Of a stretch of 64,000 bases of DNA, positions 13,935-63,075 are shown one piece after another. This DNA comes from an uncultured delta proteobacterium. Its GTDB lineage: Bacteria; Desulfobacterota; Binatia; Binatales; Binataceae. The stretch covers positions 969,419 through 1,033,418 of the forward strand of contig CAWBJH010000001.1 of the NCBI GenBank assembly GCA_963789115.1. Reading direction: 5' to 3'. A model generated the notes under the pieces. The model was not told the origin of the DNA. It did no database searches and saw only the letters and a list, made by a program, of their open reading frames with translations. The number at the start of each line of letters is the position of its first letter. The stretch's first letter is position 1. A program made the position numbers and the translations under genes.

Positions 13935-14194
13935 CCTGTAGGTTTCCTTCCTGCTACTCGTTGACCTTGTAACAAGAACCGCCCATCGCTGCTACGGAAC
14001 CGGCCCGGCCTCACTGCGGGCTGGTTCCTTCGACGTCACGCGATGTCACGCCGCCTTCAGCGGCTTGTACCGAAGTCACGGCACTTCTCCCACCGCCGGC
14101 ATGGAACGCCGCTTGAGTCTCGGCGGGGTTTGGGCGTAGATAGGGCCGGCGATGACCGCGCGCGAGTGTCGGCACCTGCGCGGTCCGCTTGCGC

Positions 14195-15556
14195 ATGAAT
14201 AACTTCATTGCCGCGCGCACGCTCCAGACCTACCCGGTCGGCGCTTATCGATGGCTGATGCTGGGGCTGACCGTGCTCGCCACGATCCTGGCCTCCTACG
14301 AATTTCAACTCGCGCCGCTGCTGCCGATACTGCTGCCCTTCCTGCACATGAGCCATCTCGGCTACGGCTACTTCATCACTTTCATCGTGCTGGTCTCGGG
14401 AGTCTCCGCGTTCGTCGGCGGTCCGCTTGCCGACCGCTATGGGCGCGTGGTCTTGATCGATATCTGCCTCGGCGCGGTGACGATCCTCACTTTCTCCAAC
14501 GTGCTGATCACCGGGGTGGTCTCGTTCGTCCTGATCCGGACCGCGATGGGAATAGTCGGCGGACTGATGGCGGGCGCGGGCGCGGCGCTGGTGCGCGACA
14601 TGTCGCCGCGCCTGAGCCGCGCAACCGCCTTCGGCCTTTTCACGATCGGCCCGGTGGGCGCCAGCTTTCTGGCCAACGCGATCGCGGGTGCGACGCTGCC
14701 GGTCTTCCACACCTGGCAATCGCAGATCTGGATCATGGGGGCGCTGGGCGTCCTGATGTACATCCCGATCCTGCTGTGGCTCAAGGACTTGAGCCCGGAG
14801 CTGCGCCTGCAGGTCTTCCGCAGCGAGATTGCGGCGATGCAGGCCGAGGGGCGGCGCATTCCGAGCGCGGCCGAGATACCGGCCAGCGCGCGCGAGGCGT
14901 TTGCCGCCCTACTCGAGCATGCCGAAGTATGGCTGCTGGTAATCGGCGCCACCGCGAACCTGACGCTTTACTTTGCGATCCAGGCGTTCGGCCCGCTGAT
15001 GTTCACCGAGGCCTATCACTACAGCCCCGCGGTCGCGGCCCGGATGAACGCCAACTTCTGGTTCACCAACCTCGCGGTGCTGATTGTCACCGGAATGGTC
15101 TCCGACCGGCTCGAGTCGCGAAAGCCGATCGCGATCATCGGCGGTATCCTGAGTGCGGCGTTGATGTGGCTGTGGGCTGGAACCTTCGGCCACCAGATCT
15201 CGCCCACGACGGTCCGGGCAATCGCGACGGTGCTGGGATGCGTCCTGGCGGTCGGCTATGTGCCGTGGGCCGCGCAGTTCTCCGAGACGCTCGAGGACGT
15301 GTCGCCGGCATTGCAGGCAACGGGATGGGCGTTTTTCGGGCTGATCGCGCGCGGATGGGTGGCAATCTCGGCGCCGCTCAGCCTGTTCGTCGCAATCCAC
15401 TACGGATGGGGCGCGTGGGTCAGGGTCGCGATGATCGGGATGATTCTCTACGTGGGCGCGATGTGCCTGTCGCGCACGCGCTTCGCGATGTCGAAGGCGG
15501 TTGAGCCGGGCAAAGCCGCCGAGCTCGCCAAGGCCGCCTCCGGCGCCCTGGAGTAA
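14195..15556 (+). CDS. MFS transporter
   Basis: 12 predicted TM segments; GGPLADRYGR between TM2 and TM3. ATG 14195 chosen over the track's TTG 14189. Confidence 0.85.
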   Translation: MNNFIAARTLQTYPVGAYRWLMLGLTVLATILASYEFQLAPLLPILLPFLHMSHLGYGYFITFIVLVSGVSAFVGGPLADRYGRVVLIDICLGAVTILTFSNVLITGVVSFVLIRTAMGIVGGLMAGAGAALVRDMSPRLSRATAFGLFTIGPVGASFLANAIAGATLPVFHTWQSQIWIMGALGVLMYIPILLWLKDLSPELRLQVFRSEIAAMQAEGRRIPSAAEIPASAREAFAALLEHAEVWLLVIGATANLTLYFAIQAFGPLMFTEAYHYSPAVAARMNANFWFTNLAVLIVTGMVSDRLESRKPIAIIGGILSAALMWLWAGTFGHQISPTTVRAIATVLGCVLAVGYVPWAAQFSETLEDVSPALQATGWAFFGLIARGWVAISAPLSLFVAIHYGWGAWVRVAMIGMILYVGAMCLSRTRFAMSKAVEPGKAAELAKAASGALE

Positions 15557-15566
15557 GAATTGTACG

Positions 15567-15593
15567 CCCCCGGCCAAATTGGCGCGCCGGGGT
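15567..15593 (+). terminator. GC-rich hairpin after the MFS gene
   Basis: ccccggc...gccgggg 7-bp inverted repeat with an 11-nt loop. No U-tract, so intrinsic-terminator status is uncertain. Confidence 0.3.
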
Positions 15594-15651
15594 CGTAAAA
15601 GGGGCGGCGCCACCGACAATCTATGCGGCCCTGGACAGAGGGAAGCCACGA

Positions 15652-16284
15652 ATGACCAGCAGCGTTGAACAACTTTTTTGGGGAGGTCCGGGCAGCGTCT
15701 GGTACTGGCACTTTCTGGGTGTGCTCACTGGCCTGTGGTGTGGCTCCATCTTAGGCGCGTTCATAGCGCATTCTGTCAAACTTCTCGGACTGCTCCGAGC
15801 TGAGGCGAGTGGCCAAACAGGCCATGCGAGTGAGACAGTCGGCGCTATCCGCTCGGTGGTTAGCGTTGTCACGGGCGCGGTGCTCGGCCTCTGTGTCGGC
15901 GGCTTGATGGGTGGCTGGCTGCTGTTAGCGTTTGTCCTGTCTCATGTCCCCCTATGGCGCCTTCCCGAAGAACCGCCTTGGATAAATCCGCTAGATAGGC
16001 TGGTTGTATCGGTCCGCATTGACGAAGCGTTTGGCTCTCAAGTGGGTAGGGTGTTCGTGAATATGCGTAACGTGATGACCCAGTATGGCGGGCTCGCCGG
16101 TGGCGTCATCGGTGGTTTGGTCTGGCTGCGCATCGAGGCTGTGGTCGTCGGGACCATTCTCTTCGGAATCATCGCCAGGCTGATGTCTTTCGCCGTCGTG
16201 ATCTTCTGCGGGCGCTTGGCTGAAAGGAGACTCGCACTCAGACATACGGCTACTGCACCGAGCCGCGTGCGGCCGCTAGACTAG
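15652..16284 (+). CDS. hypothetical 4-TM membrane protein (lower-GC islet)
   Basis: 210 aa, several hydrophobic helices. GC visibly lower than flanks and uses tta/ata codons. Confidence 0.5.
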   Translation: MTSSVEQLFWGGPGSVWYWHFLGVLTGLWCGSILGAFIAHSVKLLGLLRAEASGQTGHASETVGAIRSVVSVVTGAVLGLCVGGLMGGWLLLAFVLSHVPLWRLPEEPPWINPLDRLVVSVRIDEAFGSQVGRVFVNMRNVMTQYGGLAGGVIGGLVWLRIEAVVVGTILFGIIARLMSFAVVIFCGRLAERRLALRHTATAPSRVRPLD

Positions 16285-16346
16285 TAGTCGCCATCCGGCG
16301 TCCCGGCGCGCGTCCTGAGCACGCCGAAGCCCGAGGATTAGGAGGT

Positions 16347-16823
16347 ATGCAGCGAGAAGAGGTCAAAAGGAGGCTCTGCAATGCTTTGCGGGAGGTCAAT
16401 GAGAAAGACGCGATTCTTCTTGAGTACGACGTCAGTGAACGCTGTATTGCTTCTCGATTGGCGATGTATCTTCAAGCGCGGTTTCCCGGTCATTCGGTTG
16501 ACGTTGAGTACAACCGCGATGGGGGTGAACCCAAGCGGCTGAACCTGCCCGGGGAGTGCGCGAACCGGTGGGACCGCTATGGCAGCTCTCTTGTGGTGCC
16601 CGACGTGGTACTGCACCGGCGCGGACGTGGGGGTGCTAACCTGCTCGTGCTAGAGTTGAAGAAACTCGGTGATCCCGACGCCTTGGAATGCGATTCCAAG
16701 CGCGTGCGGGCGTTTCGACACACATTCGGGTACACCTTCGGTGCATTGATCGGGTGTGAAACGCGAAAGGGCCATACACCCAGAGTGGCGCTCTCCAAGT
16801 GGTTTGACGACCAAGAACCGTGA
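16347..16823 (+). CDS. hypothetical protein with PD-(D/E)xK nuclease-like motif arrangement
   Basis: 158 aa. E (VDVEYNR) then PD (VVPDVVLH) then ExK (LLVLELKK) spacing typical of the restriction-endonuclease fold. aggagg before ATG. Confidence 0.45.
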   Translation: MQREEVKRRLCNALREVNEKDAILLEYDVSERCIASRLAMYLQARFPGHSVDVEYNRDGGEPKRLNLPGECANRWDRYGSSLVVPDVVLHRRGRGGANLLVLELKKLGDPDALECDSKRVRAFRHTFGYTFGALIGCETRKGHTPRVALSKWFDDQEP

Positions 16824-16832
16824 CTTTATGGG

Positions 16833-18395
16833 CTAGGGCCGCATCGTCCGGGTGCGGATGCCGAGCTGGGTCGGAATGATATTCTCGTAGGCCAGGCGCA
16901 CCCAATCGACCAGTAGCGGGCGCGTGTCGCGCGGATCGATTATCTCCTCGATCCCAAACGCCTCGGCGGTGCGAATCGGCGAGCGTACCGCGTTGAATCT
17001 CTCCTCCAGCTCGCGCCGCAGCTTTTCCGGGTCCGCCGCCGCCGCCAGGTCGCGCTTGTAGGCCGCCTCGATTCCGCCCTCGATCGGGAGCGAGCCCCAA
17101 TCCCCCGACGGCCACGCATAGCGCAGGTTGATCCCGCTCGTGATTCCATGGCCTGCGCCGGCAACGCCGAACGCGCGCCGCACCACGATCGCCACCCACG
17201 GCGTCACGGTCTGGAAGACCGCGTAGAGCGCGCGCACCCCGCGCCGAATCGTCCCCGCCATCTCGGCCTCGCGGCCGATCAGAAAGCCGGGCTGATCGAC
17301 GAAGTTCACCACCGGCAGATGGAACGTGTCGCACATATCGACGAAGCGCACCATCTTGTCCGAGGCCGGCCCGTCGAGCGAGCCGCCGATCTGATACGGG
17401 TCGTTGATCATCACGCCCACCGGGTAGCCGTCCAGGCGCGCGAAGCCGGTTGCCAGCGAAGGGCCGAAGTAGGGCGCGATCTCGAAGAACGAGCCGCGAT
17501 CCATCACCAATTCGACAATCCGCCGGCAATCGTAGCCGTGACGCCGATTACGCGGCACGATCGAAATAAGCTCCTCCTCGCGCCGGCCGGGATCCTCGCT
17601 CGGCGCGATCCGCGCCGCCACCTGCCATACGTTGGAGGGCAGGTAGGAAAGGAAGCGGCGGATTTGCACCAACGCGTCGTCCTCGCTCTCGGCCTCGTTG
17701 TCCACCGCGCCGCTGGCATGAGCGTGGATATCCGAGCCGCCCAACTCCTCCTTGGTCAGGTCCTCGCCCACGCCAAATTTGACCACCGGCGGACCGGCGA
17801 CGAAGAGCTGGCTCGTCCCACGCACCATCACCGAGAAATGCGAGGCCGCTACGCGCGCAGCACCCAGCCCCGCCACCGAGCCCATGCACGCCCCGATGAC
17901 GGGAACCTCCGCCATCAGCTTGACCAGCACGTCGAAGGCCGGATTGGCGGGTACGTAGGTGCGCCGGAGCTTGTCTAGCGAGCGCACGCTGCCGCCACCG
18001 CCCGTGCCGTCGACCAGGCGGACCATCGGGAGGCGCAGCTCATGCGCCATCGTCTCGAAGTACAACTGCTTGCTGCCGATCGAGGCGTCGGCCGCCCCGC
18101 CGCGCACGGTAAAGTCGTCGCCGCCCACGACCACCCGGCGGCCCTCGATTCTGCCGGTGCCTCCGACGAAGTTGGCCGGCATGAAGTCGGCCAGCTTGTC
18201 GCCTTCGTATTTCGGGCTGCCGGCCAGCGCGCCGTATTCGTGGAACGAGCCGGCATCGAGCAGCCGTTCGATCCGTTCGCGGACGGTCAGCTTGCCGCCG
18301 TCATGCTGGCGCTTGATATTTTCCGCCCCGCCCATCCGCCCGGAGATTTCCACGCGGCGGCGGATTTCATCGACTTCATCCTGCCAGTTTTTCAC
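16833..18395 (-). CDS. acyl-CoA carboxylase carboxyltransferase subunit (PccB-like)
   Basis: Duplicated crotonase-like carboxyltransferase halves. Start set at GTG 18395 (MKNWQDEVDEIRRR) preceded by gggagg; the track ORF extends 83 codons upstream without a credible start. Confidence 0.9.
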   Translation of the reverse strand: MKNWQDEVDEIRRRVEISGRMGGAENIKRQHDGGKLTVRERIERLLDAGSFHEYGALAGSPKYEGDKLADFMPANFVGGTGRIEGRRVVVGGDDFTVRGGAADASIGSKQLYFETMAHELRLPMVRLVDGTGGGGSVRSLDKLRRTYVPANPAFDVLVKLMAEVPVIGACMGSVAGLGAARVAASHFSVMVRGTSQLFVAGPPVVKFGVGEDLTKEELGGSDIHAHASGAVDNEAESEDDALVQIRRFLSYLPSNVWQVAARIAPSEDPGRREEELISIVPRNRRHGYDCRRIVELVMDRGSFFEIAPYFGPSLATGFARLDGYPVGVMINDPYQIGGSLDGPASDKMVRFVDMCDTFHLPVVNFVDQPGFLIGREAEMAGTIRRGVRALYAVFQTVTPWVAIVVRRAFGVAGAGHGITSGINLRYAWPSGDWGSLPIEGGIEAAYKRDLAAAADPEKLRRELEERFNAVRSPIRTAEAFGIEEIIDPRDTRPLLVDWVRLAYENIIPTQLGIRTRTMRP

Positions 18396-18688
18396 CAAGT
18401 ACCTCCCGCGCTCCGTTGTCGCGGTTTTGCGGCTCGCGGTTCTTGTTCCCTCGACTACGTGCCTCGCGGTGGCCCGATCGTAGCATTTTCGACCGCCTGC
18501 CTCCCGCGCTGCCAAAGCCCTGAGACCCAACCCTTGGCAGGGCTCAGGGCGTTCGGCTGCGCCGAATGGTTTCTTAACCGGCGCGCGGCCTGTTAGCATC
18601 GAAGGCCGGAAAAATCGCGATGACGGCCGCATCCACAGACGCAATCGCCGGCGCCCGCAGCGCGGCCACGTCGCCTCGCGCGCGCAGC

Positions 18689-20035
18689 ATGAGGCTCAGC
18701 GGATGGGGCCGCTATCCGATCGCGCAAGCGCAGGTCTACCGCCCCGAGAAAATCGCGGAACTGGCCGCGATCGTATCCGGCAACGCGACCAGCCTGATCG
18801 CGCGCGGCGCCGGTAAAGCTTACGGCGACGCGGCGTTGAACGATCGCAACCGGGTGGTCGATATCGGCCGCCTCAACCGGATGTTGAGCTTCGACCCCGC
18901 CACCGGCGTCCTGCGATGCGAGGCGGGAGTGACGCTGGCGGAGATGATCGACGTCTTCCTGCCGCGGGGTTTCTTCCCGTCGGTCACCCCAGGCACCAGG
19001 TTGGTAACCGTGGGCGGCTCGGTCGCTGCCGACGTCCACGGCAAGAACCATCATCGCGACTCCTCGCTCGGCAGTCATGTACTGAGCCTCGACCTGATGC
19101 TCGCCTCGGGCGAGGTGCGCCGTCTCTCGCGCGAGCAGGAGCCGGAGCTTTTCTGGGCGACGATCGGCGGGATGGGACTGACGGGAGTAATCCTCGAAGT
19201 CGAGCTTCGCCTGCACAAGGTCGAGAGCGCATGGATCGAGGGCGAAGTGATTCGCGCCCGGGATCTGGATGAGGCGATCGAGACCTTCGAGCGCTCCGAC
19301 CGCGAGTACGGTTACTCGGTGGCCTGGATCGATTGCGCGAGCCGGTCCGACAGCGGCCGGCTCGGCCGCTCGGTGATCAACCTTGGAAATTTCGCCGCGC
19401 GCCAGAGCCTTGGCGGTATGAAATTAGCCGCTCCGTTTCGCGGCCGGCGCCGGCTTCGCGCTGCGGTGCCGTTCGACCTGCCCAACTTCGCGCTCAGTTC
19501 GCCCACCGTCCGCGCCTTCAACGCCGCCTACTTCGCGCTCCATCGCGGCGGTCGCGGACGCAAGCTGATCGATTACGAAAGCTTTTTCTACCCGCTCGAC
19601 TCGATTCGCAACTGGAACCGCATCTACGGCAAGCGCGGCTTCGTCCAGTACCAGTGCGTGTGGCCGCTCGCCGAGAGTCGCGAGGGACTAATCGAAACGC
19701 TGGAGCAGATCGCGCGCAGCGGGCGCGGCTCGTTCCTGACCGTGCTCAAGAAATTCGGGCCGCAGGAAGGGATGCTATCGTTCCCGATGCCCGGTTACAC
19801 GCTGGCGCTGGACTTCCCGCTCGCAGAGGGACTGTTCTCGTTCCTGGACGGCCTGGATGAGATGGTGCTCAAACGCGGCGGGCGCGTGTACCTGGCCAAG
19901 GACGCGCGGATGAGGCCGGATGTGTTCCGCGCGATGTATCCGAACTTGGCGCGATGGCAGGCGGCCAAGGCCGCGGTCGACCCGAACAACCGCTTCTCGT
20001 CCTCGCTCTCGCGCCGGCTCGCGATGGAGCCCTAA
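18689..20035 (+). CDS. FAD-dependent oxidoreductase, DprE1-like (decaprenylphosphoryl-beta-D-ribose 2'-oxidase family)
   Basis: LSGWGR, ARGAGKAYGD, VTVGGSVAADVHGKNHH, ELFWATIGGMGLTG, YQCVWP and C-terminal AKDARMRPDVFRAMYP...RRLAMEP all match conserved DprE1 blocks (from memory of the M. tuberculosis sequence). Start trimmed to MRLSGWG (ATG 18689). Confidence 0.85.
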   Translation: MRLSGWGRYPIAQAQVYRPEKIAELAAIVSGNATSLIARGAGKAYGDAALNDRNRVVDIGRLNRMLSFDPATGVLRCEAGVTLAEMIDVFLPRGFFPSVTPGTRLVTVGGSVAADVHGKNHHRDSSLGSHVLSLDLMLASGEVRRLSREQEPELFWATIGGMGLTGVILEVELRLHKVESAWIEGEVIRARDLDEAIETFERSDREYGYSVAWIDCASRSDSGRLGRSVINLGNFAARQSLGGMKLAAPFRGRRRLRAAVPFDLPNFALSSPTVRAFNAAYFALHRGGRGRKLIDYESFFYPLDSIRNWNRIYGKRGFVQYQCVWPLAESREGLIETLEQIARSGRGSFLTVLKKFGPQEGMLSFPMPGYTLALDFPLAEGLFSFLDGLDEMVLKRGGRVYLAKDARMRPDVFRAMYPNLARWQAAKAAVDPNNRFSSSLSRRLAMEP

Positions 20036-20098
20036 ATGAAACTGGCTGCCTTCCTATAGTTTTCACCCTCCGGGGGAGACTACAGAGGGGTTAAACCG
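19915..20098 (+). repeat. direct repeat copy 1 (3' end of the dprE1-like gene plus about 60 bp downstream)
   Basis: About 92% identical to 20600-20785. Contains the 16-bp core ctgccttcctatagtt. Confidence 0.8.
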
Positions 20099-20144
20099 CC
20101 TGCCCTCCTATAGTTGCGTTAGGAATTACAGACCGAGGCATAAA

Positions 20145-20597
20145 ATGAAGATCGAATACGCGGTTCTAGCTGATGCGGCTCAAGCAGTTGGCGGCAAGGT
20201 TTTTATCCTTGGTGGCGGGTGGAACGTTTTCCGTGCAGCAAACTATCCCACACCGATCCAGCTTGCCGTCGCGGTCGGGATAGCTTTCACGCTCAACGAG
20301 ATCGGCATCAAATATCCTCTGAGCCTCGTGATCGCGGACGAAGCGGGTGTGCCAATAGTCCCAGAAATGAAAGGGCAAGTAGAAACTGGTCAACTCCCGC
20401 CCGATGCTCCCAAGGGCGTACCGATAAACGTGCCGCTGGCGGTCAACATGAACTTGTCTATTCCCCGCCCCGGCAAATACGGAGTTCTGGTCACGGTTGG
20501 TTCCTCCAAGGCACAACTGTCGTTTGACGCAATCTTCGTGGGCCAGAAGGTGCAGCTCGCGCCTCCTGAGGATTCTGCATTGGAGCGTGGCAACTAA
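20145..20597 (+). CDS. hypothetical protein, cargo of the short insertion
   Basis: 150 aa (MKIEYAVLADAAQAVGGKVFILGGGWNV...), no recognised family. Lower GC than flanks. Confidence 0.45.
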   Translation: MKIEYAVLADAAQAVGGKVFILGGGWNVFRAANYPTPIQLAVAVGIAFTLNEIGIKYPLSLVIADEAGVPIVPEMKGQVETGQLPPDAPKGVPINVPLAVNMNLSIPRPGKYGVLVTVGSSKAQLSFDAIFVGQKVQLAPPEDSALERGN

Positions 20598-20599
20598 AA

Positions 20600-20785
20600 G
20601 CCGGATGTGTTCCGTGCCGATGTATCCGAACTTTGCGCGATGGCAGGCGGCCAAGGCCGCGGTCGGCCCGAACAACCGCTTCTCGTCCTCGCTCTCGCGC
20701 CGGCTCGCGATGGAGCCCTAAATGGAACTGGCTGCCTTCCTATAGTTCTCACCCTGCGGGGGAGACTACAGAGGGATTAATGGCG
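20600..20785 (+). repeat. direct repeat copy 2 (displaced diverged copy of the dprE1-like 3' end)
   Basis: Encodes ...MYPNFARWQAAKAAVGPNNRFSSSLSRRLAMEP* in frame but detached from any gene body. Abuts the dprE2-like start. Confidence 0.8.
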
Positions 20786-21550
20786 ATGGCAGGAGACGGA
20801 CTGGCCGCCGGCGGGATGCGCGTTCTGATTCTCGGGGCGACTTCGCCGATCGCGCGGGCGCTGGCGCTATGCTTCGCGCGCGGCGGCGCGAATCTCTACC
20901 TGGCGGCGCGCGATCGGTCCGAGGCGGATCGAATCGCCGGCGACTTGCGGATACGCGCGCGATGCGATGCGCGCGCCGGCGCGTTCGAGGCCTCCGATTT
21001 CGCGGCGCATCCGGAGTTGCTGCGCCGCGCGATCGAGGAGATGGGCGGCCTCGACGGCGTCGTGCTCGCCTTCGGCACCCTCGGCGACGAGGAGACTGCG
21101 CAGCGCGAGGCCGGCGAGGCGCTGAGCACGATCGGCCAGAACTTTACCGGCGCGGTATCGATCCTCACGCATGTGAGCGAGCATCTGAGCGCTCAGGGCC
21201 GGGGATTCATCATCGTGCTCGGCTCGGTTGCCGGCGACCGCGGCCGCGCAACCAATTACGTCTACGGCTCGGCCAAGGGCGCCCTGGCACTGTTCACGCA
21301 AGGGCTGCGCGCTCGCTTGGCGGGCTCGGGCGTCCACGTGATGACCGTGAAGCTCGGACTGGTGGATACGCGCATGACATGGGGACGCGACGGGGCGCTG
21401 CCGGCGGCCTCGCCGGAAAAGGCGGCCAGGAAAATCTACGCCGCCTGGAGGCGTGGCCGCGAAGTCGTCTACGTGCCGGCCTTCTGGCGCGCGATCATGG
21501 GCGCCGTAAAGATGGTGCCCGAGCGATTCTTCAAGCGGATGAGCTTTTAG
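20780..21550 (+). CDS. short-chain dehydrogenase, DprE2-like (decaprenylphospho-2'-keto-ribose reductase family)
   Basis: LILGATSPIARALA Rossmann motif, NYVYGSAKGAL catalytic YxxxK region, C-terminal VPAFWRAIMGAVKMVPERFFKRMSF resembling the DprE2 tail. Confidence 0.8.
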   Translation: MAMAGDGLAAGGMRVLILGATSPIARALALCFARGGANLYLAARDRSEADRIAGDLRIRARCDARAGAFEASDFAAHPELLRRAIEEMGGLDGVVLAFGTLGDEETAQREAGEALSTIGQNFTGAVSILTHVSEHLSAQGRGFIIVLGSVAGDRGRATNYVYGSAKGALALFTQGLRARLAGSGVHVMTVKLGLVDTRMTWGRDGALPAASPEKAARKIYAAWRRGREVVYVPAFWRAIMGAVKMVPERFFKRMSF

Positions 21551-23160: not shown

Positions 23161-23234
23161 TTGGACTCCTTCCAGAGCCGATCTAACGAGACCTGGCAGA
23201 GGCTGCGATTAGAGGACGCTTTATTGACCGGGAT

Positions 23235-23295
23235 TTCCGTTTTGACTCTCCGATTCCAACTCGCCGTATAGAGCAAATGGCCTCGCTCGGCAAGG
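23235..23295. repeat. 61-bp conserved element, copy A (5' leader of amidase gene)
   Basis: tccgttttgactctccgattccaactcgccgtataga... shares 37 identical bp plus flanks with 62184-62244. Confidence 0.7.
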
Positions 23296-23433
23296 TACGC
23301 TCCACGCTTGAGCCTATCGGCAAGCTCGCGCTGGTACGAGTGAATCGGCTTCGAGCCGCTCGCGACCGACCATGCCGCGCTCAAGAAGGCCGTCAAGGCT
23401 GGCCGCATCAAGGCCGAGAAGCTACGAGAGGGC

Positions 23434-43471: not shown

Positions 43472-43990
43472 ATGCTTGATATTCTTGGCCTTATGGCAGC
43501 GCTCGAACCCGGCAGGCAGTTACCGTCTTTCAGGCTCAAGGATCTCGACGGGAAAATCCGCACACGCGAGGAACTGAGCAAAGGCGGCCTCGGGCTCCTG
43601 ATTTTCTACCATCGCGAATGCCCGGTGTGTCAGTTCTCGGCGCCGTTCTTCGGCGCGATCGCGCGGGCGATGGGCTCATCGGCCCAGGTCGGAGTATGGG
43701 GCGTCAGCCAGGACCCTGAGGAGGAGAGCGAGGAGTTCGCACGCCGCAACGAGCTGCGGATGCCGATCCTGGTCGACGAGGATCCCTATCCGGTCTCCAA
43801 CGCCTGCAGGATCACGAACGTGCCGACCCTGTTCCTGATCGACAATCACGGCAAGATCGTGCAAACCTGCGTCGGCTTCGCGAAGGACGACTTCAGCAAG
43901 ATCGCGGAGCAACTGGCTTCAAAGGCCGGCGTCAAGCCGCCCGACCTTTTCGCCGGCCGTTCCGATATCCCTGCGCTCAGACCGGGCTGA
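43472..43990 (+). CDS. thioredoxin-fold redoxin (TlpA/peroxiredoxin-like)
   Basis: CPVC active-site motif in thioredoxin-fold context (LLIFYHRECPVCQ). Confidence 0.75.
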   Translation: MLDILGLMAALEPGRQLPSFRLKDLDGKIRTREELSKGGLGLLIFYHRECPVCQFSAPFFGAIARAMGSSAQVGVWGVSQDPEEESEEFARRNELRMPILVDEDPYPVSNACRITNVPTLFLIDNHGKIVQTCVGFAKDDFSKIAEQLASKAGVKPPDLFAGRSDIPALRPG

Positions 43991-44030
43991 AGCTCCCATA
44001 ACGCGGGCTGAGTTTCAGCCCGCCTCGGGC
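43858..44030 (+). repeat. direct repeat copy 1 (3' end of redoxin gene, stop codon and terminator hairpin)
   Basis: Homologous at nucleotide and protein level to 46600-46775. Hairpin gggctga-gtt-tcagccc at 44005-44021. Confidence 0.75.
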
Positions 44031-44167
44031 GCGCGCGCCGCTAGCTTGCGCGATTCGTTTGCTTGGGAAACGGCGCTTGACTTACGGGCTGTGGGGTAAG
44101 GGCGGCCTTTTGACGAGTTGCCTCGTTCAGCGGGGGCTCCCGATCAAACAAGGACGTAACAAAATCT

Positions 44168-45391
44168 ATGTCCTGGCTACTCGCGCTCGGTCTGCTGCTA
44201 GTTTCAGTTCTGGTCTTCCGTCATCGCTCGCACCGTAGGAATAGCGGTTCCGGTGGCGTGTCGGCGTCAACTGGCCCCTCCGTCTCAGTTTCGATAACCG
44301 GTTCCGGCTCCCATTCCGCACCCGACACGGGCGCTCCGACGACCGTTGTCGGAAGCGACTCCTGGGTTATCAACCCTGAAAGCAGCTTTCCTCTAACGAT
44401 CCGCCCGGCAAACGGAGAAATCGCCCGGCAAATTAAGGCCTTGCTTGACCAAGGTGGCGATAGGCTGAGGCTCAACGAATCCCTTCGATCCCTTATGCTA
44501 AGAGAAGGGGTACGGTGTAAGGAAATCGACGATTACGTCGCCCGTTTCAAACCCGCATACCTCGCAACTGTCGAAACTCTCAAGAAGGCTACGCCCGAGT
44601 GGTCCACCGCGTCGCAGCTCGATCGCGGCGATCTCCTGGAAGAGTTTCGAGCAAAGGCCGTCCAGATGCTTGAGGTCAGCCCGGCTGCGATTTGCGATGT
44701 TCGGACCCTATTTGAATGCGAACCGGACTTCGGGGAGGTACGGAACCTGTTCGTCCGCAATGGGACTGAAGCAATTGATCTTTGCAACCTGTATGGGCGA
44801 TATTCTCAAAATATACGAAAGGTCCACCACCTGCCTGCTGACGACCTATATCGGCGGCCGGACTTTGAAAAGCTTGTTGAAGCCGGCTTAGCGGCTCGCG
44901 GCCTTCAGATTCCTGTTTCGGATATTCTTAATAGTTTAACGCTTAAGGAGCTTCGAGCGGTGGTTGCCGACACCAGCACACCGTTCTTCAAACGGAAAGC
45001 CGAGGCGGTCGAGTACGCCGCGGGGCTCCGTGACATTACCGACCGCCTTGCTAAGGTGATGGCCTTCCGAGAACTGTTTCAACTCCGTCCACTGCCTCAG
45101 AAGCTTTCCGTGGTCGCCTCAGAGCTCTTTTCGGAGCCCGTACTGCAAACGAAAAGGTTTGCACATGAAGCGTCGTGCTTAATCGCACACACGTACGCGA
45201 TGGGTGCGTATGACTTGAGGGACCGGAGCGACCCCGCGCTTGCAAAAATGGCGTTGGGATGGGAGATTAGCGCCGACGACGGCTCATGTCCGATGTGCAG
45301 GAAAGCTGCGGCAAGACTTTACCCGAAGGGAGCCCGCCCGCGCGCACCTTTACACATCGGATGCCGATGCGGCGTCGAAGCAAAATTATAA
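44168..45391 (+). CDS. hypothetical protein: N-terminal TM, Ser/Gly-rich linker, C-terminal Cys cluster (CPMC...CRC)
   Basis: 407 aa, no family recognised. Lower GC. Confidence 0.5.
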   Translation: MSWLLALGLLLVSVLVFRHRSHRRNSGSGGVSASTGPSVSVSITGSGSHSAPDTGAPTTVVGSDSWVINPESSFPLTIRPANGEIARQIKALLDQGGDRLRLNESLRSLMLREGVRCKEIDDYVARFKPAYLATVETLKKATPEWSTASQLDRGDLLEEFRAKAVQMLEVSPAAICDVRTLFECEPDFGEVRNLFVRNGTEAIDLCNLYGRYSQNIRKVHHLPADDLYRRPDFEKLVEAGLAARGLQIPVSDILNSLTLKELRAVVADTSTPFFKRKAEAVEYAAGLRDITDRLAKVMAFRELFQLRPLPQKLSVVASELFSEPVLQTKRFAHEASCLIAHTYAMGAYDLRDRSDPALAKMALGWEISADDGSCPMCRKAAARLYPKGARPRAPLHIGCRCGVEAKL

Positions 45392-45489
45392 TCATCCCGC
45401 GACTTTGTCAGGGCAATGTCCGGTTCGCTGTTGAAATTGAGCAGCGGCTGGATACTAACCTAAGCTGCAGCCTTTTCTATGGGATCGAT

Positions 45490-46428
45490 TCAGGCGCGAG
45501 GATCGTAACCCGGGACCGGCGCAACAGGCATATCGAGGACATCGTGCGAGGAATTCATCGGAAAGATGAACGTCGCCTTCGAGTTGATTTCGATCACTTC
45601 AACCCGATCGGCACCCACGAGTTTCAGCTTGAAGTGAAATGGAGATGTCATCGCGCAACCGAGGTCCTGACGAGCCCGTTTGACCAGCGTGTCGATGTTC
45701 TGTGTCATGTAATCTTGTATTCCGGAAAAGATCCGGCAAGCGTTGTCATGCTGATCGACGACCTCGTCGCTGATCCCGGACATTGCGTATCCCCCACCTG
45801 GCGCACAGTAAACGACCCCGTCGATCTGGGTCGCCGATTGGACGTGGGCGGACCGGAGCTTCTTGATGTCATCGTCGCTAGGCGTCATCTCCAGTGCCAG
45901 CACGCCTTTGGGCCGATAACACTCGATCAGTTTCGGCCAGTTACGATGGATGATTTCCAGCAACCGCTGCCTCGCCCAATCCCCGTGCTCCATGACGTTG
46001 ACGGCGAAAAGTTCATCTGCAGTGACGTACGCGAAGAGTACTGAGCCAGTACGCTGGACGAAGTCGGGTGCATCTCGCTCAGGGGTGGTACCCAGGTGAA
46101 AGTGATGGATGCGCCAGTCGTTCAACAGAGCATCGTTGTAGTCGGGTTGCAGCAGCCCTTTGCTCTGATGCGAGCGCAGGTCGAGGCCCTTGGCCGCCCT
46201 CTTAAGCAGGAGATTAAGGCCGGCGCGATGCTTATAAGGGCAAGTTAGCTCCCGTGACTGAAAGATAGTGCGTACACGCAGCGGGATCACCCGTCGCTGA
46301 ACGTTGTAAAACGCCAGGGAGATTGCCTCCGGCGTCTCGCTCGGCTTCAGAGTATAGCCCATGCTGACCAGTTCAGTCCTTTGCATCTCGCACCAATCGG
46401 CGAGAAAGTTTGCGGTGATTTCGGGCAT
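45490..46428 (-). CDS. hypothetical protein (312 aa from MPEITANF)
   Basis: Convergent with 44168-45391. aggagg before ATG 46428. No family recognised. Confidence 0.5.
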   Translation of the reverse strand: MPEITANFLADWCEMQRTELVSMGYTLKPSETPEAISLAFYNVQRRVIPLRVRTIFQSRELTCPYKHRAGLNLLLKRAAKGLDLRSHQSKGLLQPDYNDALLNDWRIHHFHLGTTPERDAPDFVQRTGSVLFAYVTADELFAVNVMEHGDWARQRLLEIIHRNWPKLIECYRPKGVLALEMTPSDDDIKKLRSAHVQSATQIDGVVYCAPGGGYAMSGISDEVVDQHDNACRIFSGIQDYMTQNIDTLVKRARQDLGCAMTSPFHFKLKLVGADRVEVIEINSKATFIFPMNSSHDVLDMPVAPVPGYDPRA

Positions 46429-46599
46429 CGGCCTCCTTTCCGCTCGAACGAGGCGAGCGGAACCTTCTAGAATGCTCCACCCGAACGTTCCAATCAACCG
46501 GAATTTTCATTTTCAATCCTGAATCGAATTAGAACCGACGCCGGGCGTTTAGCAATTGCGAAGTTCGAGCCCGGTTTTGGGCCAGAAGGCCGGGCTGTA

Positions 46600-46775
46600 C
46601 GTGTAAAGCAGTGGGTCGGGTTCTCGAAGGCCGATTTTCTCGACATCGCGGCCCATCTCCCGCGCGCTTGCGGCGTCAAACCGCCTGATATCTTGGCCGG
46701 GCGAAGCGACATTCCGGCGCTCATACCCGGCTGAAGCTCGCATAACGCGGGCTGAGTCGCAGCCCGCCTCTCGAG
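46600..46775 (+). repeat. direct repeat copy 2 (displaced diverged redoxin 3' end)
   Basis: In-frame remnant VKQWVGFSKADFLDIAAHLPRACGVKPPDILAGRSDIPALIPG* versus the native VQTCVGFAKDDFSKIAEQLASKAGVKPPDLFAGRSDIPALRPG*. Confidence 0.75.
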
Positions 46776-52877: not shown

Positions 52878-53828
52878 CTAGAACAACGACTGCTGTAAGG
52901 CGACCGGAGCCGGTTCCGCTAACCTGTCAGGCAACGGCTTGAGTTCGTCCTCGAAACGAAACCGACTCGCTTCGAGGTACGGCGCGTGGTGTTCTACGGC
53001 TATCCACTTTCGGCCCTCGCGTTCACAGGCCTCGCCGGTCGTGTTGCTGCCCGCAAACGGGTCAAGCACGAGATCGCCGGGGTCGGTGAGGAACCGAATA
53101 AAGAAGGTCGGAAGCTGAACCGGGAATCGCGCGGGATGAGGCGTCATGTGGTTCAGCTTGCAGAGTTCGAGATAACGTCCGTTTGCGTCGTTGTTGCCGT
53201 GTACCAGGAGATTCGACGGGATCGAACCTCCCCGGTCAGTAAACTTCCTGGTTATTACGTGTCCTGACGGCCGGACCTTTGGACGGTAGCCTCGCTTAAC
53301 CAACCGGTGCATGTCAGGGCTGTATTCGTTCAACACCTTTTGATTGTCGGACTTCGGGTTGGGTGTCTTTGACAACCACCAAAGGCAGTTGACCGCGTCT
53401 TTCACCCTGATCTTTCTGACAGTGACCCACTCCGCCGGCGAGGGGAGCTTAGCGGGGTTGTACCAATAGAACTCCTGTGCGAGGTAAAACCCGACTTCGC
53501 GAACGAGCGCGATCAGCAACTCGAAGTGGTAGAGCGAGCGCGTCGGTTTGCCGGGCGTCCACGCGCCGCCAATGTCGATCACGAAACTGCCGTCGTCGCG
53601 AAGAAGGCGGTGGACCTGGCGAGCAAATGGCAAGAACCATTCGACATACCGGCGCTGGTCGGCGTTGCCGTATTCCTTCTTGAAGTGAAGCGCGTAAGGC
53701 GGTGACGTGAACGCGAGGTTCACGCTCGCGGTCTCAAGGCCGGCCATAAGGGGCAGGGAATCGGCTAAGTAGGCGCGCCCGAGTTTCGTTGCGTAAAGGG
53801 GCTTGGAGGCTTTGAGGGGCGACTGCAC
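52878..53828 (-). CDS. DNA methyltransferase (beta-class N4-cytosine/N6-adenine type, SPPY)
   Basis: Motif IV TSPPY N-terminal and motif [12 protein letters not shown]-terminal. No adjacent restriction gene. Confidence 0.85.
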
Positions 53829-55439: not shown

Positions 55440-55829
55440 GATCTGGCGCCTCCGCCCTTTGGGAATAGTTGGGGATCATGGCGTTTCTTCCTCTTTCGCC
55501 TAGCCCGGGAAGCAGGCCGCGCGGCGCCGCGCCGATCAGTCGCCGGGCATTGAGCAATCGGGATCGCGTCGATGGTGCGATCCTTGGTGATGACGGATCG
55601 AACGGCGCGACTATAAGCAAGAGCCGATCCACTGTCAAGAAAATCTTACCCGTTCAGTACATCGGTGACAACTTTTAGTTGACCCCTTTCGACACACTTG
55701 AGGGATCGGTGGATGCGACGACGCGCATTCGCCCGGCGCTCACGGCCGGCGGACGCGCCAATTCGCAACGGGCGCGCCCCCGCCAGGGAATTTGGCGGCC
55801 TCGTTTCCCGCTCGGGGCCCCCGGCGGCC

Positions 55830-55960
55830 CTCGCTCGCGGCCAACCTGCCCGGATCCAGGATGCCACCTAACCGAGATCGGCGCGCTGAACGCGGCGCTG
55901 CGCGAAGAGTTTGCCCGGCTGAGGCCCGGATCGGCGGCGTCAACCGCACGGCCCGGCAGG
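55830..55960. repeat. GC-rich dispersed repeat, copy A
   Basis: About 80% identical to 60968-61080 (accgagatcg...gcccggctg.aggcccggatcggcggc). Confidence 0.6.
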
Positions 55961-56224: not shown

Positions 56225-57509
56225 CAGGTTGCGGAAAAACGGATGATTACCATGGCGGGATGTGCTTTCGAGAGTGTTGGCATGGCGTGTGAGGGCGTCG
56301 ATTGAGGTTCAGTTGGTCAAGTGCCCCGGCTCTCCACCCGATTGCGGATGGCTCAGGGAGCTGCCAGCGCCAAATTGCGCATCCTGACCAGATTGTAGGC
56401 GGCCAGCGCGAAGGTGAATATCCAACCGACCCGAGCGACTCCGCGGTGGCGCGCCTTGCGCAGGCCGGCGACAGTTTTGAGCCAGCCGAAGATCTCCTCG
56501 ATGCGTTTACGCTTGTGCTGGCTGATCAGATAGCCGGGATGACGAGTGGTCCTTTCATCAATGATAGTGGACGGCTTGCAGGCAAGGTGCGGGGTGACCT
56601 GGTGATCACGCAACTCCTGAACAAGTTCTTTGCGGTCGTAGCCCTTGTCGGCTCCCAGGGTTACTCGATGCGAGCCTGGGATTTTTTCCACCATCGCGAT
56701 GGCCGCCTCCGGTTCGGCGCGGCCGGTGGCCTGGGTTACGCAGCCTTGGACCGCAATGCCGTTGCGGTTCTCCATCAGCACGTGTCCGGCGTAGCTGAGC
56801 TTGGCCTCCTTGCCTGCACCCTTGCGGGCCAGGCGGGCCTCGGGATCGGTGGTCGATTGGTGAGTGGCGTTGCTGCGCCGCTCACCGTGGAAGTCGACGC
56901 TGGGGTTGCCCGGATCGTCCGGCGGAGTCTTTGGGTCAGCGCCTTTGCGCTTGAAGCTCTTGTGGCTGGCCCAGGCCTCGATCAGCGTGCCGTCGACCGT
57001 GAAATGCTCGTCCGAAAGCAGGCTTTGGGCGCGGGCCTGGTCAACCACCGCGATGAAAAACCCCTCCGCCACCTCGCCCTCAAGCAACCGCTCGCGGTTT
57101 TTGGTGAACACGGTCACGTCCCACACCGGGTCATCGATGCTCAGTCCGACGAACCAGCGGAACAGGAAATTGTAGTCGAGCTGCTCCATCAACAGCCGCT
57201 CACTGCGCACCGTGTACAGCACCTGCAGCAAAAGCGCGCGCAGAAGCTTCTCCGGCGCGATCGAGGGACGCCCGCTGCTGGCGTAAATCGCATCGAAGCT
57301 CGGCCCCAACTTTTCAAGCGCCACATCCGCCATCGCTCGGATCGCTCGCAGCGGATGGTCTTGGGGCACCCGCTGCTCGGCCGATATGTAGCTGAACATC
57401 GCAGACTGCTGGCGATCCGTCCCGCGCATCCTCACACCCTCCTCACACCACCATCGCTGGCTACTCTACATGAGAATCGAATGGGAAACGATCGTTTTTC
57501 CGCATCCTG
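56225..57509 (-). mobile_element. IS5-family insertion sequence with 21-bp imperfect terminal inverted repeats and CTAG target duplication
   Basis: IR-L caggttgcggaaaaacggatg at 56225-56245. IR-R (reverse complement) caggatgcggaaaaacgatcg at 57489-57509. ctag at 56221-56224 and 57510-57513. Confidence 0.8.
56353..57435 (-). CDS. IS5-family DDE transposase
   Basis: 360 aa. MFSYISAEQRVPQDHPLR N-terminus and DDE region typical of the IS5 group. Confidence 0.85.
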   Translation of the reverse strand: MRMRGTDRQQSAMFSYISAEQRVPQDHPLRAIRAMADVALEKLGPSFDAIYASSGRPSIAPEKLLRALLLQVLYTVRSERLLMEQLDYNFLFRWFVGLSIDDPVWDVTVFTKNRERLLEGEVAEGFFIAVVDQARAQSLLSDEHFTVDGTLIEAWASHKSFKRKGADPKTPPDDPGNPSVDFHGERRSNATHQSTTDPEARLARKGAGKEAKLSYAGHVLMENRNGIAVQGCVTQATGRAEPEAAIAMVEKIPGSHRVTLGADKGYDRKELVQELRDHQVTPHLACKPSTIIDERTTRHPGYLISQHKRKRIEEIFGWLKTVAGLRKARHRGVARVGWIFTFALAAYNLVRMRNLALAAP

Positions 57510-60650: not shown

Positions 60651-60744
60651 TTGGCCCCCAATTTATCACGATGCGCCCTTCGGCTGGTGAGTCTCATTTT
60701 ACGAACCTTCCCCGCTTATCGCGTGCTGCATTGCGCGCGGGCGC

Positions 60745-60804
60745 GGTCGGCGCGCACTTTGAGCGCATCCTAAACTCAAAAGCAGGCTGCTTGCAAAGGG
60801 CGAC
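60745..60804. repeat. 60-bp intergenic repeat, copy A
   Basis: cgcgcactttgagcgcatcctaaactc....gcaggctgcttgcaaagggcg matches 62878-62940 at about 92%. Confidence 0.7.
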
Positions 60805-60877
60805 GTCCTGACGGCGCATCGGGGCGCGCTCGTTTGTGGATGGGGGTTTCGGCAAAATACGGTCGCGCGGTCTGAAT

Positions 60878-60918: not shown

Positions 60919-60967
60919 AAAGTTTTAGGTTTCCGGGGCTCGTGCTTGCGGCCCGGCGACGTGGGCT

Positions 60968-61080
60968 CACGGACAAGCTGCCGGGATCATCCTGCCTCCT
61001 CGACCGAGATCGCCCCGCACGCGGGCTCTGGCGCGGAAGAGTCGCCCGGCTGCAGGCCCGGATCGGCGGCTTCGGCCACA
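60968..61080. repeat. GC-rich dispersed repeat, copy B
   Basis: Matches 55830-55960. Confidence 0.6.
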
Positions 61081-61560
61081 CGGCGGGGCGTGTGGGGCCG
61101 GTGTTTCGGCTTGACGCAGGGCCGCCCCAGGCCCCGGAGAAGGGCAAGACGGGCCGAACGCGGCGGGCGCGGGCGGGCGTTTGGCGGCCAGGAGAACGCG
61201 CTTCCGGCTCCGTCGTCCCAGGCTGCCGGGCCAAAATCAAAACGGCCTGCGTCCAAGCCTCACCCTCCCTATTTTTGACCCCCGACGTTCATACGCACCA
61301 CGACAGGCGACATAATCGGTCGTAAGTAGCGGGAATCATTAAGGAAAACGCAAGGAAAGAAGATCGAATGCCGGGGCGCGGGCGTGGACGGCCCCGGATC
61401 AAAGCAGGAGGAAATATCCTGGGGTCGTGCGTCCCACTGTGTCTCGTGGGGTTCGTACCCTCCAATACGAGTTTCCGGAAATGATGCACTGCCGGTCAAT
61501 CATTGCCCGGCGACCCCGCACCTCGGACGTGGACTAATGCCCACGTTTCGGGGCTTTTTC

Positions 61561-61637
61561 TGGCGCCCCCTGCGGGATTCGAACCCACGACCCCAGGATT
61601 AGGAATCCTGTGCTCTATCCATCTGAGCTAAGGGGGC
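61561..61637 (-). tRNA. tRNA-Arg (anticodon CCT), CCA encoded
   Basis: Manual fold: acceptor GCCCCCT/AGGGGGC, D-arm GCTC-AGATGGATA-GAGC, anticodon arm CAGGA-TTCCTAA-TCCTG, T-arm GTGGG-TTCGAAT-CCCGC, discriminator G, then CCA. Confidence 0.85.
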
Positions 61638-62174: not shown

Positions 62175-62183
62175 CGCGGATTC

Positions 62184-62244
62184 CTCCGTTTTGACTCTCC
62201 GATTCCAACTCGCCGTATAGACCGAACGGCCTCGCTCTGCAAGG
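62184..62244. repeat. 61-bp conserved element, copy B (5' leader of membrane-protein gene)
   Basis: See 23235-23295. Confidence 0.7.
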
Positions 62245-62358
62245 TTTTAGCCGGTTTTGGTCCACGGTGTTTCCGGCGGCGCGCCGGGGGGGCGGTTTCG
62301 CATCTCAGGGACACACAACGCTTGGAAATGATCCCCGTTGAAAAGGCTCGGCCAAGTT

Positions 62359-62832: not shown

Positions 62833-62877
62833 TTTCCCGTCCTCCCTTACGTGGCAGTCGCCGCGCTCTCGCGCGCG

Positions 62878-62940
62878 CGTCCGGTGCGCACTTTGAGCGC
62901 ATCCTAAACTCTACGGCAGGCTGCTTGCAAAGGGCGGCGG
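62878..62940. repeat. 60-bp intergenic repeat, copy B
   Basis: See 60745-60804. Confidence 0.7.
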
Positions 62941-63075
62941 CCCCGCATCGCGGGGTTGACGGCGATCGGCGGGGACGGAACGATCTATGTCGGCAGTGGA
63001 AACGGATTGGTTGCGGTTCGCTAGCGTCCTGAGTGGGAAGTTCCTTGACAAACTCGCCGATGGACCTTCTTCAAT

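Follow-up and report, generated by a model that had tools for sequence, protein, structure and literature searches.

The window analysed here, a stretch of 64,000 nucleotides from an uncultured delta proteobacterium of the family Binataceae living in soil (assembly GCA_963789115.1, contig CAWBJH010000001.1, positions 969,419 to 1,033,418), contains a dprE1-like oxidoreductase gene followed by a dprE2-like gene of the short-chain dehydrogenase/reductase (SDR) family, both in an operon for cell-wall sugars. Between the two lies a single small gene, here called the cargo gene, whose product belongs to DUF6941 and which is flanked by direct repeats of the 3' end of dprE1 and of the spacer behind it. 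Two building blocks recur in these repeats: A, the final 125 nt of dprE1 (A' being its copy within the right-hand repeat), and U, a unit of ~52 nt made of CTGG, a 16-nt core, a small hairpin (TCTCACCCTGCGGGGGAGA) and CTACAGAGGGG. Our tentative reading, developed below, is that the cargo gene is a long-standing resident of this operon and the long repeat a later addition in the lineage of the window, made at a spot prone to rearrangement and not left by the arrival of a mobile element. The features of the locus are:

18620-20035, + strand: dprE1-like FAD oxidoreductase, 471 aa (Pfam FAD_binding_4 and ALO)
19915-20094, + strand: repeat copy 1, composed of A (19915-20035), a 9-nt linker and U1 (core plus hairpin tail)
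20046-20061, + strand: core copy 1 (CTGCCTTCCTATAGTT), within U1
20095-20115, + strand: isolated core copy 2, only the first ~20 nt of U, with the core at 20100-20115
20116-20144, + strand: 29-nt cargo leader, which includes a GAGG ribosome-binding site
20145-20597, + strand: cargo gene, DUF6941 protein of 150 aa (Pfam PF22091, E 9e-16)
20598-20730, + strand: 133-nt segment confined to the window haplotype, composed of a 2-nt filler 'aa', the decaying A' and the linker
20600-20780, + strand: repeat copy 2, composed of A', linker and U3
20731-20779, + strand: U3, with core copy 3 at 20732-20747, the small hairpin and an AGAGGG ribosome-binding site for dprE2
20780-21550, + strand: dprE2-like SDR, 256 aa (Pfam adh_short)

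The two repeat copies, of 180 nt (19915-20094) and 181 nt (20600-20780), are 95.6% identical and differ by seven substitutions and one 1-nt indel; the initial annotation had placed a repeat of ~185 bp correctly, with an identity (92%) that was slightly too low. Copy 1 is the true 3' end of dprE1 (stop codon at 20033-20035) followed by 59 nt of spacer, and copy 2 reaches on its right to the A of the SDR start codon (20780). Read from left to right, the window has A, the linker, U1, 3-6 nt, the isolated core 2, the 29-nt leader and the DUF6941 ORF (open reading frame), followed by TAA, 'aa', A', the linker, U3 and the ATG of dprE2; the U on the dprE2 side supplies a ribosome-binding site. The core, CTGCCYTCCTATAGTT, is present at 20046, 20100 and 20732, a triplet already recognized earlier; a scan of the window allowing two mismatches recovered the same three copies and no others (0.02 expected).

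In the nearest species-level relatives available in the genome collection (L001 and L002), which are distant Binatia with 63-69% protein identity, dprE1 and dprE2 are contiguous, as had been predicted for orthologous loci. The target there is empty: the two genes are 16-35 bp apart, and the spacers contain neither DUF6941 nor a core. Because dprE1 and dprE2 adjoin each other in these genomes, the cargo gene is, on this comparison of sequences, an insertion relative to the distant Binatia loci. Two closer relatives, L082 and L210, came to light in the cluster of proteins at 90% identity to which the cargo product belongs, and they differ from the window only to the right of the cargo in their layout. 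Over dprE1 and the cargo, L082 shares 95.3% identity with the window, and its A-U1-core-leader-ORF order is the same, but at its right junction TAA is followed directly by GCTGCC, the beginning of a ~48-nt U3, and then by dprE2, with no copy of the dprE1 3' end. In L082, direct repeats of 17 nt (GCTGCCTTCCTAYAGTT) mark the exact limits of the 482-nt cargo, the left core abutting the leader and the right core abutting the stop codon. L210 has the site, left junction and core-leader-ORF of the window and retains the ancestral TGA stop; its right junction consists of TGA and 17 unrelated nt, followed by ATGATGCGC of dprE2, with no A' and without the U3 that is common to the window and L082.

Each of the three haplotypes thus has a right junction of its own, so that this junction exists in three forms or more, while the left junction is fixed (a complete U, an isolated 20-nt core and the leader), with core copy 2 bordering the cargo on the left in every haplotype. 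Since L082 and L210 lack it, only the window haplotype has the dprE1 3' copy. The initial annotation had treated the ~185-bp duplication as the signature of the insertion, and had named orthologues carrying the gene but no repeats as the observation that would count against this. L082 and L210, which possess the gene, the site and the left junction without any dprE1 copy, are such orthologues, although the distant L001 and L002 are not, and the duplication can no longer serve as a signature of the insertion.

All of these sequences are metagenome assemblies, and L082 and L210 are short k141 contigs, which are points in favour of an assembly artefact, that is, of repeat copies or of L082 and L210 junctions created by mis-joined reads of co-existing strains. 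We consider this very improbable. A second, separately deposited contig (GCA_049279895.1, JBAPPA010000324.1; L081) is 100% identical to window positions 14145-20935, a stretch of 6.8 kb spanning both repeat copies. This is the check for assembly collapse that had been proposed at the outset, and it argues against collapse provided that the two assemblies rest on independent reads. Furthermore, the copies do not collapse because they differ at eight positions, and a graph mis-join would be expected at shared sequence, which is not where the variant junctions are found.

The comparison of the window with L082 also bears on timing. The two differ by 4.1% in dprE1 (dS 0.092), by 4.4% in DUF6941 (dS 0.064) and by 12% in the non-coding U1/core region; the equal divergence of cargo and dprE1 implies that the insertion predates the split between these lineages. 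The dprE1 3' copy has a different history. At four of the four positions where the dprE1 ends of the window and L082 differ, copy 2 carries the window state, giving odds of ~16:1 against a duplication before the split in the absence of gene conversion. The differences between copy 1 and copy 2 comprise the substitutions C>T, G>T, A>G, A>G, T>C, C>G and G>A and the indel; six of these eight are private to copy 2, including a frameshift and the changes L>F and D>G, and two of the three coding substitutions in copy 2 are non-synonymous. Judged from the alignments, this is the pattern of a copy that was made from the window lineage's own dprE1 and then underwent neutral, pseudogene-like decay. Alleles at this locus have in addition been exchanged between lineages. 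Among ORF sites polarised with an outgroup, L082 shares derived states with L210 from 20204 to 20294 and with the window from 20300 to 20596, the latter including the change from TGA to TAA, and this clean split implies that L082 is a mosaic and that alleles here exchange segments by homologous recombination.

The 133-nt segment that distinguishes the window from L082 has two unlike ends. On the right it joins U3 seamlessly, in the native A-linker-U order, and on the left it reads TAA, 'aa' and GCCGG, with no homology to the stop-codon end. A seamless right side and a homology-free left side are what homology-primed copying closed by an end-joining step would leave behind. Templated insertion or synthesis-dependent strand annealing (SDSA) at double-strand breaks is a process in which nearby sequence is copied, the homology-primed side being seamless and the other side carrying a short filler. 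We therefore favour, tentatively and at a little less than even confidence, a scheme in which a long-resident accessory DUF6941 gene acquired the 133-nt dprE1 fragment, and with it the 181-bp repeat, at a later date, in the window lineage, by one-ended homology-primed repair. The haplotypes, their junctions, the co-divergence, the mosaicism and the decay of copy 2 are shown by the sequences; the order of events and the repair mechanism are what we infer. In outline, an ancestor of a small clade of Candidatus Binataceae would have taken up a DUF6941 gene, together with 29 nt of that gene's own leader, in the spacer between dprE1 and dprE2, and the gene would now be co-transcribed within the operon. 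A break at the junction of stop codon and U3 in an L082-like allele may then have freed a U3 end, for which the homologous U1 (~50 nt) of the sister chromosome or of an incoming allele would serve as pairing partner. Leftward synthesis beyond the homology would have copied the linker and the final 125 nt of dprE1, and the new strand would have been closed onto the stop-codon end by an illegitimate joint with the 2-nt 'aa' filler. Such an event, homologous at one end and illegitimate at the other, would be of the SDSA type or of the type known as homology-facilitated illegitimate recombination (HFIR). The copied dprE1 fragment would be functionless and decaying, with the native dprE2 ribosome-binding site kept in U3. 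A repair event of this kind explains why the segment stops at the edge of U, why copy 2 carries lineage-specific states and why it is decaying.

Several observations weigh against this scheme. The order of events rests on few characters and on three haplotypes, two of which come from metagenome contigs of 0.6-1.6 kb, and a search through dprE2 homologues found no empty-site allele in a close relative (best match 75% identical). The reverse order, with the window form first and a clean 133-nt deletion in L082, would need gene conversion between the two copies, or else an L082 branch on which all four changes took place. Repair accounts neither for the isolated core to the left of the cargo nor for the coincidence of breakpoints with core edges, and a duplication of similar length (~177 nt) at a second island in the same window is likewise left unexplained.

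This second island, whose layout is the same and whose repeat is about as long, is one of the reasons to consider that insertion and duplication were a single event. In that case circular or one-end-anchored DNA, carrying the cargo and ~180 bp of homology to the dprE1 3' end and spacer, would have recombined once at an empty dprE1-U-dprE2 site, either by a Campbell-type single crossover or by a form of HFIR in which the illegitimate joint lies upstream of the anchor. The direct product would be A-U1-cargo-A'-U3, and L082 and L210 would be later, trimmed derivatives. A single crossover predicts exactly what the window has, a cargo flanked by repeats of the upstream gene's 3' end and spacer; the private change in copy 2 (3.3%), as a measure of its age, agrees within error with the ~4-6% per-lineage neutral divergence since the split of the window and L082; and HFIR has been documented as a way of adding non-homologous genes beside a conserved anchor (PMC3240628; PMC5361080). 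We nevertheless regard this alternative as unlikely. The four out of four window-specific states of copy 1 that are found in copy 2 speak against it, L082 would need an improbably clean 133-nt deletion that lacks microhomology and ends exactly at the stop codon and the core edge, and the L210 junction, with its 17 unrelated nt and ancestral TGA, is not derivable by simple deletion. The isolated core would also still lack an explanation.

It is this core, and the several breakpoints that lie at its edges, that point to site-specific recombination, as the initial annotation had supposed. Here the core would be a recombination or cleavage site, and a recombinase whose gene lies elsewhere would have inserted a single-gene cassette of ~0.5 kb (core, leader and ORF) into a spacer with two tandem U units, at the second of them, with the dprE1 duplication as collateral repair at the same cleavage-prone site. 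Consistent with such an original capture, the cargo of L082 is bounded exactly by the 17-nt core repeats, a length typical of att cores. At the left junction 15 of 16 core nt are conserved, whereas the 29 nt behind them bear no relation to U, and a U-like unit occurs between unrelated genes in a metagenome contig (L148). This unit, at 444-494 on the minus strand of an unrelated soil metagenome contig with 58% GC, consists of the core and a hairpin whose stem bases are altered (89% identity over 46 nt); it lies between two SDR genes, is oriented opposite to them and may be flanked by a TTCAAC...CTAC direct repeat.

Other evidence makes the site-specific explanation unlikely. No recombinase was found in or near the insertion. 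The initial annotation had suggested searching for further cores and for an integrase, and neither was found: beyond this locus, the window, a further 12.9 kb from the same genome (L212) and ~850 kb of retrieved loci contain no copy of the core or of U, and tblastn of the window with a tyrosine integrase from a Binatia island (L213) gave nothing at E < 1, no search having been aimed at serine recombinases. Scans of metagenomes for the core returned 120 16-mer matches, all due to chance except the one true U in L148, and viral scans gave 19 and 5 matches, all due to chance. The resident DUF6941 genes of other Binatia (L083, L084, L088 and L211) have promoters of their own and no cores, and L210 has no right-hand core. 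The core itself contains a palindrome of only 6 bp and lacks paired recombinase-binding arms, and U folds no better than shuffled sequence (z-scores -1.4 to +0.9). What remains of the crossover-site proposal is the insertion, the core triplet and the 17-nt bounds of L082; the long repeat as an att-type footprint has to be given up.

The nature of U was pursued through several further candidates. Rfam gave no match for it, which together with the unremarkable folding scores led us to reject a structured RNA or known RNA family. With zero copies beyond the locus in the 64 kb of the window and 12.9 kb of the same genome, U is not a high-copy repeat such as a repetitive extragenic palindrome or bacterial interspersed mosaic element (REP/BIME) or a miniature inverted-repeat transposable element (MITE). 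The 29 nt 3' of core 2 are not similar to the U tail, their alignment scores lying below those of shuffled sequences, and were rejected as a degenerate third U tail; towards the leaders of resident DUF6941 genes they show marginal similarity (p 0.06-0.12).

An extension of the site-specific idea would make it general. An undescribed trans-acting recombinase or nuclease in Binatia might target a core of ~17-20 nt in U and insert integrase-less single-gene cassettes into operon spacers, the duplicated 3' ends of dprE1 and of the redoxin gene at the second island (~180 nt each) being by-products of repair. We hold this to be improbable. If such core-directed capture were real, it would be a new gene-capture system, integron-like and yet structurally unrelated, and it is only with this minority explanation, cassette capture in an uncultured phylum, that the locus would be of wide interest.

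In the favoured scheme, the locus would represent the capture of an accessory gene with a remnant of one-ended recombination, and it can be compared with several known systems. HFIR and C-terminal displacement arrays have been described for Rhs proteins, contact-dependent inhibition (CDI) systems and effector-immunity arrays of the Vibrio type VI secretion system (T6SS) (PMC3240628, PMC5361080). The locus shares with them the joining of new DNA by homology on one side and illegitimately on the other, an orphan 3' fragment of a conserved upstream gene behind the inserted gene, strain-to-strain differences at the junctions and mosaic alleles; the pairing of one seamless with one homology-free or filler junction, expected of HFIR or one-ended repair, is present in the window. 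It differs in that the host gene is a housekeeping-type oxidoreductase rather than a polymorphic toxin, and in that there is a single remnant, apparently a copy of the same chromosome's gene and not a displaced older tip. The resemblance to templated insertion or SDSA (copied nearby sequence, a seamless right side and a short filler on the left) is here deduced from sequence alone.

Integrase-less, att-flanked islands, namely cis-mobilizable elements (CIMEs) and decayed integrative islands (PMC5704250, PMC7563491), resemble the locus in having recombinase-free cargo between direct repeats that include a gene 3' end, with a short identical core at both ends. The flanking direct repeats are indeed present (181 nt in the window; the 17-nt core in L082). 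Unlike CIMEs, the locus has boundaries that differ between related strains, a long repeat that is strain-specific and an element of only 0.5-0.7 kb, and no cognate integrase or parent element was found for it. With DUF6941 as the only ORF and three different right junctions, the locus fits an integrative island or CIME poorly. Integron cassettes are likewise compact, promoterless single ORFs oriented with transcription, with a stop codon that abuts a repeated site, but the locus has no attC R''/L''/L'/R' boxes or GTTRRRY consensus, no array, and no intI was found. This assignment is not supported: no RYYYAAC...GTTRRRY attC could be read in the sequence, the U fold is not significant and no integrase was found. 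A transposon, insertion sequence (IS) or MITE is likewise not supported in view of the lack of inverted repeats bounding the cargo and of a transposase at the insertion, and of duplications (17 and 181 nt) that are atypical for these elements. The template and variable repeats (TR/VR) of a diversity-generating retroelement were also rejected: there is no reverse transcriptase (RT), and the mismatches are not adenine-specific.

The cargo gene itself, which the initial annotation had left without a family, matches Pfam DUF6941 with 58.8 bits (gathering cut-off 27) over 114 of the 125 profile positions. It had no match in PHROG, PADLOC or NCBIfam, and no paper mentioning the family was found in the literature. 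There are 186 homologues with E <= 0.001; among the 120 homologues listed, identities range from 63 to 93%, and the few with a source name are from Binatus or Binataceae. On several large contigs the family has a recurrent chromosomal context, Peptidase_C69, DUF6941 and acyl-CoA dehydrogenase (L084/L085, L241), which L088 matches on the dehydrogenase side only; other contexts are found in L083 and L243. In the recurrent context the gene has its own promoter, of the TTGACx-N17-TATGCT type, and neither a core nor flanking repeats. The window contains no second DUF6941 copy, and a site in L212 upstream of an acyl-CoA dehydrogenase, considered as a vacated resident position in the same genome, was dropped since the dehydrogenase looks to be a different paralogue. 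The cargo has a GC content of ~0.55 against ~0.66 in its flanks, as noted before. Because resident DUF6941 copies elsewhere also have a GC content of 0.55-0.60, this is no evidence of recent foreign origin, and low GC was rejected as a sign of it, being a trait of the family.

All three haplotypes have an intact cargo ORF. The ratio of non-synonymous to synonymous substitution (dN/dS) is 0.41-0.63 among the operon-embedded genes (window, L082 and L210), compared with 0.09-0.25 among resident Binatus copies and 0.28 for dprE1, a contrast in substitution rates that indicates relaxed or altered selection, presumably following relocation. The structure prediction that had been recommended for the 150-aa protein gave an all-beta sandwich (AlphaFold2, pLDDT 68.6, moderate confidence). 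Foldseek searches of the PDB with this model found weak beta-sandwich matches only (TM 0.36-0.47, E ~1e-3), which are lipid- or glycan-binding sandwiches: MD-2/MD-1, the C-terminal domain of Wzt and the GM2 activator. As a lead and not a result, a resemblance to lipid- or glycan-binding proteins would suit an operon for polyprenyl-phospho-sugars.

The products of the two host genes score below the cut-offs of the corresponding NCBIfam models, with 458 bits for the dprE1-like protein (DprE1 model NF053785, cut-off 500 bits) and 191 bits for the dprE2-like protein (DprE2 model, cut-off 250 bits); homologues of the latter are named decaprenylphospho-erythro-pentofuranosid-2-ulose 2-reductase by JGI. 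The dprE2 genes of the window and L082 encode a 12-aa N-terminal extension (MAMAGDGLAAGG, window 20780-20815). The start of dprE2 in L210 (524-530) lacks 33 in-frame nt present in these two, and dprE2 homologues, of 244-245 aa, begin at the position matching 20816. The 11-mer GCGATGGCAGG has only three occurrences in the window, against 0.11 expected by chance: one lies in A (19951), one in A' (20637) and one immediately behind the start codon of dprE2 (20783).

The second island (43857-46775) had been reported earlier, at 43858-46775, as showing the same gene-3'-end duplication. The duplication is real but much more diverged than the dprE1 repeat: 43927-44026 and 46671-46770 are 82% identical, and the similarity extends to ~177 nt at ~76%. 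What is duplicated here is the 3' end of a gene for an AhpC/TSA-redoxin (43472-43990) together with its terminator hairpin, and the two copies enclose 2.6 kb of cargo with lower GC. This cargo comprises a 407-aa ORF (44168-45391) that has no family match and, on the minus strand, an anti-phage gene of PD-T4-7-like type (45490-46497; PADLOC E 5e-43), and the island contains no integrase. Homologues in other Binatia are located on a tRNA-Thr island with a tyrosine integrase (L213/L214), a 72% paralogue is located in a toxin-antitoxin/DUF559 islet of the same genome (L212), and no flanking repeats of at least 30 nt were found around PD-T4-7-like homologues elsewhere. Further along the window, an IS5-like DDE transposase (DUF772 and DDE_Tnp_1; 56353-57435, minus strand) and an N6/N4 DNA methylase (52878-53828, minus strand) fall in a stretch of lower GC (53-61 kb) near tRNA-Arg(CCT) at 61561-61637. 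Three dispersed intergenic repeat pairs were also observed: 23231-23296 and 62178-62245 (91% identical, with a TTGACT...TATAGA promoter-like motif), 60736-60808 and 62870-62942 (88%), and 55820-55952 and 60952-61084 (77%).

If a resident gene with a secondary duplication is the correct explanation, the locus would represent an ordinary but clearly documented case of an accessory gene settling inside an essential-type operon. It would also show that one-ended recombination leaves gene-end remnants that mimic att sites, which would call for caution when islands are called in metagenome-assembled genomes (MAGs). For DUF6941, the operon provides a testable context, a predicted beta-sandwich protein encoded beside a DprE1/DprE2-like pair for the epimerization of a lipid-linked sugar.

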